From: Xylographa opegraphella
Lineage: Eukaryota
Assembly: GCA_022813865.1 (NCBI GenBank)
Contig: JALDZX010000030.1
Location: 124,001 to 188,000, forward strand
Direction: 5' to 3'
DNA: 64,000 bases
The position numbers and the translations under genes are program-made. This document shows positions 20,627-21,719 of this stretch, piece by piece (position 1 is the first letter of the stretch; each line of letters opens with the position of its first letter). The notes under the pieces are model-generated. The model was given only the letters and a program-made list of their open reading frames with translations, ran no database searches and was not told the origin of the DNA.

Positions 20627-21719
20627 TCATTGCCAGGGGATGTTATTGTCGCGAAACAATGGAACGTGAACCAGAGCCTCTGCACACTCACCTCTAGGCG
20701 CTGTTGATGACTTCTCCGCGAAATCTTTCGAGATTTGAGGTGAGACCTCCGTCACGGTCCGCAGGTGGAAGACGGCCTTGCACATCGTACACTTGTCCTT
20801 AAAATCGAGTTTGAATCCATCATAAGACTGAGCCCAGCATTCTGGACGATTGGCGCCCCGACGCATCGAGCTGCACAACGGGGACGAGCTAGAGGAGTAC
20901 TTCGCCACCAACGCCTCAGCCGCAGCCTGGTCAGGATCAAGGCCCTTTTGAGCTACATATATCTGCTGGAGGCAATAGAACTCCAGAAATGCTCCGTTGA
21001 TGATGTCATTGAGCTTGGCCTGGTCAGACACAGAAAATCGATTCTGCCGGATGCTCCGAAACCACTCGTCAACAGTAGTGGAACTTCCCACGGGAGACAG
21101 AACATTGAGCTTCGTACTCTTGAATGTACCCCAAATAGTCGCAGAAGACCCGCAGAAGACCCGATCTTGCTGGTCAACAGCACACTCAATCGCTTGGCCT
21201 CTAAGAAAAAACCGATCGACCTGTGCCTGACTTGGGAGTATTCTCTCTTGCTTCGGGTTACCGAACGTACGGGTTCGACTAGCACTTGTAGGTAAACTCA
21301 CTATCGTCAATTTAGTGTGCGGGATAGACTCAAGTTATCGGGGCCTGGTACTTACGCAAACTTTGGCGCACGCGTGCAGAAGGTTCCAAATCACCATACT
21401 GGGCAAGCAGTTCAAGAACTAGCACGGATACCAAGGTTTCAGAGAACGAGGCCGGGGAAATGGATGGTGGTCCATGAGCAATAGAGGGATATTCGAGTCC
21501 AGGGTCCTCAGCGGCCATGGTCAAATAATCACCCAGATCTTGTATTTTCTCAGCCACCGTTTCCAGTATTTCTTCATATGTGTACTCGATGGACGTATGA
21601 ACCTTTTCGTCCCATGAAAACGTGAACAGCCCAGAGGCTTCTGTGGAACCATCGACGCTTCCCCACTGATATGCCTGATCAAATATCGGTTGGAACCATA
21701 CTCGTACAAACGTACCCAT
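20627..21719 (-). CDS. Orphan protein (about 345 aa) with CxxC...GECAE motif; intron 21301-21355; possible extra 5' exon up to about 21936
   Basis: Two ORFs are joined in frame by a 55-nt GTAAGT..TTGAC..TAG intron. C-terminus DKCTMCKAVF...PRGECAEALV. Confidence 0.7.

Follow-up and report, generated by a model that had tools for sequence, protein, structure and literature searches.

In the lichen-forming fungus Xylographa opegraphella, a stretch on the minus strand between positions 20627 and 21300 of a 64,000-nucleotide window (contig JALDZX010000030.1, positions 124,001 to 188,000; "the window" denotes this whole stretch of DNA) encodes a C-x-x-C motif followed by a Cys-Ala-Glu motif. An initial annotation, made from the letters alone, read this pair as the zinc site of a permuted nucleotide or nucleic-acid deaminase. 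The question raised by the locus is whether it encodes such an enzyme, a different metal-dependent protein, or a decaying remnant. By sequence comparison, the product belongs to a small two-domain protein family without previous description and with no detectable known relative. Its likeness to deaminases is local, and the proposal that it is a detectable member of the CDA-fold superfamily, permuted or otherwise, is not supported.

Gene structure and distribution of the family

The stretch analyzed was found to be exon 2 of a two-exon fungal gene, and the coordinates of the initial annotation cover only this part of it (Table 1). Exon 2 lies in an open reading frame (ORF) of 227 codons (20627-21310, minus strand), which contains no ATG and begins with TTG in the ORF list. 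The spliced product (P0003, 345 amino acid residues) was 100% identical to 'hypothetical protein MMC26_004685 [Xylographa opegraphella]'. The locus is a genuine protein-coding gene from a lichen-forming ascomycete. Residues are numbered below according to P0003 unless exon-2 numbering is stated. The N-terminal part forms a helical domain of low conservation, and the C-terminal domain spans approximately residues 150-345.

A GTGAGT hexamer, the usual fungal splice donor, was found at 20691-20686 (minus strand) inside the G-E-C codons of the GECAE motif, and a CAG is located 80 nucleotides (nt) downstream of it, beyond the stop codon. An alternative intron starting at this hexamer was rejected, as the relatives read GMC, GKC or GRC followed by AEALVH, i.e. 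the conservation is at the protein level. Given that CAEALVH is kept in the relatives while the residue before the cysteine varies, the GECAE stretch is coding. No second copy of the gene was detected by tblastn within the 64-kilobase window.

The profile search with HMMER (1,835,955,588 representatives; threshold E ≤ 0.001) identified 18 relatives, seven of which were found at E ≤ 1e-10. The protein had been described as an orphan, which was nearly right, yet these 18 relatives exist. A first word-based search had returned three proteins only, and a second one, using the 16-sequence profile, returned five proteins, none of them new, among the best 8000 candidates. The alignment, including cluster members, comprised 22 sequences, of which three were N-terminal fragments (P0007, P0008, and P0014) and 19 contained the C-terminal domain. 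Three of these 19 were near-duplicates (P0022 of P0011; P0023 and P0024 of P0020); a non-redundant alignment comprised 16 sequences.

All seven named members came from lichen fungi, namely X. opegraphella, X. soralifera, Variospora fuerteventurae, Variospora sp., cf. Caloplaca sp., Xanthoria calcicola and Xanthoria aureola. Xylographa (Ostropomycetidae) and Variospora (Lecanoromycetidae) represent separate subclasses of Lecanoromycetes; Xanthoria and Caloplaca presumably both belong to Teloschistaceae. Among the named HMMER matches from the 1.84 billion representatives, there were no members from other fungal classes. Judged on the named members, the family looks restricted to lichen-forming Lecanoromycetes. 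The metagenome contigs of the Joint Genome Institute yielded 95 pattern matches with P0003 and 283 with an alignment (A1), with no relative among them. Among the papers listed on permutation of the deaminase fold, on fungal zinc deaminases and on lineage-specific families of Lecanoromycetes, no title or abstract described the family.

Conserved residues and predicted fold

The three peptides on which the initial annotation was based, DKCTMCKAVF, PRGECAEALV and IECAVDQQDRVFCGSS (residues 159-174), were all found in the minus-strand translation. The order that it had noted, with CxxC before CAE, held in all 18 sequences containing both motifs, which are separated by 31-40 residues in the family and by 31 residues (C295 to C327) in the target. 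CxxC was present in 19/19 sequences with the C-terminal domain and C[ASV]E in 18/19 (15 CAE, 2 CSE, and 1 CVE); the exception, P0010, breaks off approximately 20 residues past CxxC. When P0003 was shuffled 20000 times, CxxC arose in 3068 sequences and [CH]AE in 1268; 204 sequences had both motifs, and in 31 the two were within 20-45 residues of each other. A pair of this kind is rare per protein but expected somewhere in a proteome, and therefore conservation decides. Identity to exon 2 in the 16-sequence alignment was 17-63%, and the distant members showed 17-30%; even at the latter level, C292, C295, C327 and E329 were invariant or nearly so, which bears out the weight that had been placed on these residues. 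Because the motifs are kept across such a diverged family, they are not mere chance.

The residues R206, R209, K289, C292 and C295 (R84, R87, K167, C170, and C173 in exon-2 numbering) were invariant in the 16-sequence alignment, and G172, Q215, Y281, E317, G325, C327 and E329 (G50, Q93, Y159, E195, G203, C205, and E207) were conserved in at least 90% of it. Counted by column over the rows with a residue, G172 was found in 17/17, S or T at position 174 in 17/17, R206 and R209 in 18/18 each, Q215 in 17/18 and G325 in 18/19. The counts were 19/20 for K289, 19/20 for C292 and 20/20 for C295, the odd residue at K289 and C292 being that of the misaligned N-terminal fragment P0014. The nearby histidines vary (H300 in 4/20 and H333 in 5/18), so that the conserved candidate ligands number three, not four. 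An additional cysteine beside C327 (C326, giving CC-A-E) was observed in 10/19 sequences; members of the Xylographa-like clade have E, K, M, R or H at position 326. Between the cysteines of CxxC, the residue pair is free to vary (TM, PV, LV, AV, PM, CV, or VM), with CPxC in 8/19. Between CAE and the end of the protein there are 16-78 residues, with no conserved element.

The AlphaFold2 model of exon 2, based on 16 sequences, had a mean predicted local distance difference test score (pLDDT) of 69.4 and a predicted template modelling score of 0.66, with pLDDT 78-84 over residues 171-210 (exon-2 numbering, as for the elements that follow). The model contains strands 27-33, 36-42 and 47-49, and helices 76-85, 90-116, 122-136 and 140-148. 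In its C-terminal part, a hairpin (159-160/165-166) is followed by helix 171-176 right after C170, a loop, and helix 206-218 right after C205. The hairpin segment AIECAVDQQDRVFCGSS was modelled at low pLDDT (47-62). The full-length model, based on 22 sequences, had a pLDDT of 57.0 and showed the same secondary-structure elements for the C-terminal domain. In both models, C292 and C327 immediately precede the starts of predicted helices, and the loop between these helices contains no strand.

The deaminase- or JAB-like fold that the initial annotation expected was not found by Foldseek or VIA-align, and both models (pLDDT 69 and 57) are mostly helical. The Foldseek search against the PDB, with a model of moderate confidence and an aligner dependent on sequence order, gave no match that reached E ≤ 0.001 (best E 1.8) and no deaminase among the matches listed. 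VIA-align, run on 48161 representative chains under the same two limits of model confidence and sequence order, gave no match that reached Z ≥ 5, the highest value being Z 3.3 across 60 residues, and the best 50 included no deaminase. No deaminase family was matched in Pfam by hmmscan at E ≤ 1 (16 members, 5 more, and exon 1); the 16 members matched eight different families, each by one member only. In NCBIfam, the target had no match, and the 22 members together gave six rows, each from a single member, with no deaminase family among them. The PDB sequence searches (two profiles and the last 81 residues) found nothing below E 0.085 and no deaminase. The best match of the target in the ESM Atlas (0.87) was to clusters without a name, and the recognition value (1665) was below the mark of 2300, giving no lead.

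Three weak matches were set aside. The mosquito protein AAEL013433-PA (E 0.085-0.15 in the PDB sequence searches) was taken as chance. A match to the NK-2 homeodomain (1qry_A, E 0.18) aligned profile positions 75-118 (approximately residues 199-240 of P0003) with chain residues 27-71; it has no counterpart of the third helix, which in homeodomains is the DNA-reading (recognition) helix, and is probably chance. The segment W-F-R-x-x-R-Q-x-R-[FY]-[ST]-x-x-[DE]-Q-x-x-L recalls helices 1 and 2 of NK-2 homeodomains. DUF3990 (PF13151), the only Pfam row for the target, was matched by 1/16 members with E 0.21 and 11.7 bits against a cut-off of 32.2, over exon-2 residues 35-104 and profile positions 37-104 of 152, and was likewise taken as chance. 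This family is placed in the Pfam ADP-ribosyltransferase clan in a passage of PMC7955679, and a passage of PMC4524185 reports it at the C-terminus of an Rhs toxin.

Candidate readings of the cysteine site and the linked neighbor gene

The reading to which we tentatively lean is that the C-terminal domain is a new metal-dependent domain, probably hydrolytic or otherwise enzymatic, whose site of three cysteines and a glutamate is locally deaminase-like and whose substrate would be anionic. C292, C295 and C327, at the N-termini of two short helices, would bind a single metal ion, probably Zn2+, with the first two cysteines in a K-x-K-C-x-x-C motif after a β-hairpin and the third in an R-G-x-C-A-E motif where the last helix begins. 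In such a site, a water molecule or the substrate would sit on the metal, and Glu329 would act as the general base. Elsewhere in the chain, R206, R209, Q215, Y281 and K289 form a conserved basic or polar set, the basic members of which would hold the anionic substrate; nucleotides, nucleic acids and phosphorylated compounds are examples of candidates. We infer an active site rather than a structural staple because the motifs are at predicted helix N-termini, the putative ligands are three, a glutamate follows two residues after a ligand, and invariant Arg and Lys residues occur together with conserved Tyr and Gln. If the site is catalytic, the domain would be a new enzyme scaffold, maybe a second independent route to a deaminase-type zinc centre, and would be confined to lichen-forming fungi, a group whose own biology has hardly been studied at the level of proteins. 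If the site is structural only, the domain would be a new small zinc-binding family, which helps annotation and is unsurprising.

Four points weigh against the enzymatic reading. Three cysteines and a carboxylate (E329 or E317) could equally make a purely structural site. The models were built on at most 22 sequences and are of moderate to low confidence, and the meeting of the three cysteines and the glutamate in space is putative. Nothing in the data ties the family to any substrate. Finally, the window's copy is frameshifted by 1 nt within its conserved 5' region.

Somewhat unlikely, in our estimate, is a non-enzymatic structural zinc module, built in the treble-clef manner from a zinc knuckle and a helix, in which the metal staples the C-terminal hairpin and helices and the basic helix W-F-R-x-x-R-Q-x-R-F serves to contact a nucleic acid or a partner protein. 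In treble-clef fingers, the zinc knuckle and the helix are arranged in the same fashion as here, where CxxC comes straight after a predicted β-hairpin and the third cysteine is at a helix N-terminus. The cysteine next to C327 in 10/19 sequences might act as the fourth ligand, nucleic-acid binding would agree with the invariant Arg and Lys residues, and the weak homeodomain match (helices 1 and 2, E 0.18) points in the same direction. However, that match is not significant and stops short of the third helix, and there is no family-wide fourth Cys or His, as position 326, H300 and H333 all vary. Moreover, an invariant Glu two residues past a Cys, accompanied by a conserved Tyr and Gln, is seen more typically in active sites than in structural staples.

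Irrespective of the family's role in other genomes, the window's gene could itself be a recent pseudogene or a truncated remnant, which we consider unlikely. Upstream of exon 1, an ORF homologous to the N-terminal extension of the relatives was found, its frame offset by 1 nt from that of exon 1. As shown by tblastn, residues 47-113 of P0008 matched 21948-21748 and residues 1-49 of P0007 matched 21879-21733, both with 61% identity. The frame switch was located at approximately 21750-21740, affecting the upstream region 21719-21780 (minus strand), whereas in P0005, P0007 and P0008 the extension and the exon-1 part are continuous in one frame. Full-length relatives comprise 431-465 amino acid residues (P0016, P0017, and P0022), as against 345 annotated in the target, and a second assembly of the likely source run showed 0 differences from the window. 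The local copy may be N-terminally truncated, recently disabled or decaying. On the other hand, the remaining 345 codons are open, the intron is correctly spliced and all of the family-invariant residues are intact; both assemblies may share reads, in which case a common read-level error is possible.

Two further readings received still less weight. It is doubtful that the protein is a new Cys3-Glu zinc hydrolase with deaminase-like geometry on an unrelated or unrecognizably rearranged scaffold, which deaminates or hydrolyzes a nucleotide or nucleic acid and works with, or is restrained by, the protein encoded across a shared bidirectional promoter, the two genes forming a module specific to lichen fungi. 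More doubtful still is a different cofactor or chemistry, i.e. an iron-sulfur cluster held by the three cysteines and a carboxylate, or a redox-active CxxC dithiol. Three invariant cysteines and a conserved glutamate are also a known way of holding a [4Fe-4S] cluster with one special iron (IspG binds its cluster with 3 Cys and 1 Glu), and CPxC, found in 8/19, resembles the motifs of thiol-disulfide oxidoreductases. Nevertheless, no iron-sulfur or thioredoxin-fold match was obtained in Pfam, NCBIfam or the PDB, and the middle residues of CxxC are not constrained.

The gene that would share this promoter is located approximately 350-600 bp upstream of the target on the opposite strand. Its product had no Pfam match, 0 hits in the PDB profile search, and a best ESM Atlas match of 0.77, giving no lead. 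The protein contains the strongly conserved Trp/Gly/Pro-rich motifs DT.LPW..GG.LAI, TGH[VI]LVLDLHR and PGILPGD. Between the stop at 22294-22296 and the conserved AAKEF, the reading frame offers no ATG. In the public annotation, the gene is accordingly given a 3-codon first exon at 21914-21923 (plus strand) and a 386-nt intron overlapping the target's upstream ORF on the other strand, an arrangement that looks doubtful.

Eight relatives of the neighbor protein were detectable by a word-limited search, which may miss distant ones. Linkage between the two genes was judged from locus tags and equal contig sizes only. The locus tags are adjacent in X. opegraphella (MMC26_004685/004686) and in X. 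soralifera (MMC17_000248/249/250). On the contig of size 271935, the target P0003 occurs with the neighbor P0026; on that of size 921221, P0005 (MMC17_000248) occurs with P0028 and P0032 (MMC17_000249 and MMC17_000250). The other combinations are P0004 with P0030 (contig size 76495), P0006 with P0031 (405306), and P0009 with P0033 (125369). The pairing is therefore apparent in 5/13 family members with a known contig size; for the remaining 8/13, which are distant, Teloschistaceae-like, and in several cases on short contigs, the word-limited neighbor search gave no matching relative. The identities of target and neighbor fall in parallel (64/67, 59/65, 41/44, and 31/37%), which fits a linked pair apparently diverging together. 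Ordinary synteny among related species could also account for the pairing. The prediction of a complex of target, Zn and neighbor, run without alignments and with an uncertain partner fold, scored 0.00 and spoke neither for nor against an interaction.

The neighbor family is tandemly duplicated in X. soralifera (P0028 and P0032); the second copy is 41% identical to the window's P0025 and resembles P0031. As P0031 is paired with the divergent P0006, the resemblance of the P0032-like copy to it hints at two old paralogous types of pair. Should these two uncharacterized genes prove to stay together across divergent lichen fungi, they would offer a concrete starting point for testing lineage-specific functions. 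The flanks encode housekeeping proteins (Table 1) and WD40 repeats, and the window is eukaryotic. Among the ORFs scanned in the window, neither a biosynthetic cluster nor a mobile element was apparent near the pair.

Table 1. Positions of the gene parts, motifs and neighboring genes within the window.
Feature	Position	Strand	Description
Exon 2	20627..21300	-	223 codons, 2 bases of the junction codon, and stop TGA (20629-20627); residues 123-345 of P0003; holds the conserved C-terminal domain and all motifs
Intron	21301..21355	-	55 nt; GTAAGT (21355-21350)...CTAAAT...TAG (21303-21301); removal yields ...RQSL-L-SLPTS..., exactly as in P0003
Exon 1 (as annotated)	21356..21719	-	ATG at 21719; 121 codons and 1 base; encodes part of the N-terminal helical domain; homologous to P0005, P0007, P0008 and P0014
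Upstream ORF	21679..21936	-	85 codons, MEALPS...GNDYRVRT..., containing WILEDLKDIKRRMGSAGND; homologous to the N-terminal extension of relatives
CAE motif, C327-A-E329	20678..20686	-	After R324-G325; N-terminus of the last predicted helix
CxxC motif, C292-T-M-C295	20780..20791	-	After K289-D-K291; first Cys N-caps a short predicted helix following a β-hairpin (YDG/LDF)
Basic helix, W201-F-R-S-I-R206-Q-N-R209-F	21035..21064	-	Invariant R206 and R209, then Q215; helix 76-85 of the exon-2 model, pLDDT 81-87
Hairpin AIECAVDQQDRVFCGSS, residues 158-174	21143..21193	-	Predicted β-hairpin ending in the family motif [CT]-G-S-[ST]; model strands 36-42 and 47-49 (exon-2 numbering)
Neighbor gene, conserved coding part	22300..23262	+	P0025/P0026, 320 amino acid residues, MMC26_004686; divergently transcribed; no known family
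TFIIH subunit Ssl1	18224-19755	+	Flank
IWS1-like protein	23741-25231	+	Med26/TFIIS domain at 24419-25231
FG nucleoporin	27352-28317	-	Housekeeping ORF
EDC4-like propeller	30186-34673	-	Housekeeping ORF
Carnitine acyltransferase	52925-55048	+	Housekeeping ORF
JmjC+PHD protein	61659-64000	+	Housekeeping ORF

Comparison with treble-clef fingers and CDA-type deaminases

A treble-clef zinc finger consists of a CxxC knuckle and two ligands in the first turn of a helix. The target resembles it in the CxxC after a predicted hairpin and in a further putative ligand at the N-terminus of the following predicted helix. It differs in having three conserved ligands instead of four, a variable spacer of 31-40 residues, and an invariant Glu near the third ligand.

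The deaminase core is described in a passage of Iyer et al. (2011; PMC3239186) as Helix1-Strand1-Strand2-Helix2([C/H]AE)-Strand3-Helix3(PCxxC)-Strand4-Strand5 with the sheet order 2134, and Table 1 of that paper gives C[H]AE in Hel-2 and PCxxC in Hel-3 for CDD/CDA. The circular permutation mentioned in this source for the deaminase-like fold concerns an extra strand of AICAR transformylase (PMC3239186). That the target is a true, rearranged member of this fold with the CxxC and [C/H]AE helices swapped, acting on nucleotides or nucleic acids as a toxin, mutator or editor, is highly improbable, given that the motif order is reversed in 18/18 sequences, the spacer between the motifs has no predicted strand where the fold needs Strand-3 between Helix-2 and Helix-3, approximately 110 residues of long helices are inserted between the hairpin and the motifs, and none of the 22 members matched a Pfam deaminase (E ≤ 1), with no PDB sequence match and no deaminase in the Foldseek and VIA-align rows listed. 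A circular permutant is unlikely to fit, because Strand4, Strand5, Helix1, Strand1 and Strand2 would be needed within 31-40 residues. In favor of a rearranged member, G-x-C-A-E-A-[LI]-[VI] and C-x-x-C are both conserved, and a non-sequential likeness could escape Foldseek and VIA-align, which both depend on the order of the sequence.

Of the permuted deaminase proposed by the initial annotation, the conserved residues and the local likeness stand, whereas membership of the superfamily is unsupported by motif order, predicted topology and profile searches, and the order-dependent fold searches listed no deaminase. Deaminase-like motifs alone are insufficient to call a permuted deaminase, and deaminase-like chemistry on another scaffold is a minority possibility. 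The target further differs from CDA-type deaminases (CDD/CDA, TadA, and APOBEC; Pfam dCMP_cyt_deam_1) in that no Pro precedes CxxC (K-C-P-V-C or K-C-T-M-C) and nothing is conserved after CAE. CDA-type deaminases hold zinc and activate water by a local arrangement of Cys and Glu at helix N-termini. With them the target shares Cys-Ala-Glu and C-x-x-C, each at the N-terminus of a helix (predicted in the target), three conserved ligands (putative in the target) with no fourth, and a Glu two residues after a ligand. Also shared are an upstream β-hairpin that ends in Gly and small residues (G-S-[ST] in the target), and conserved basic residues, which would suit nucleotides.

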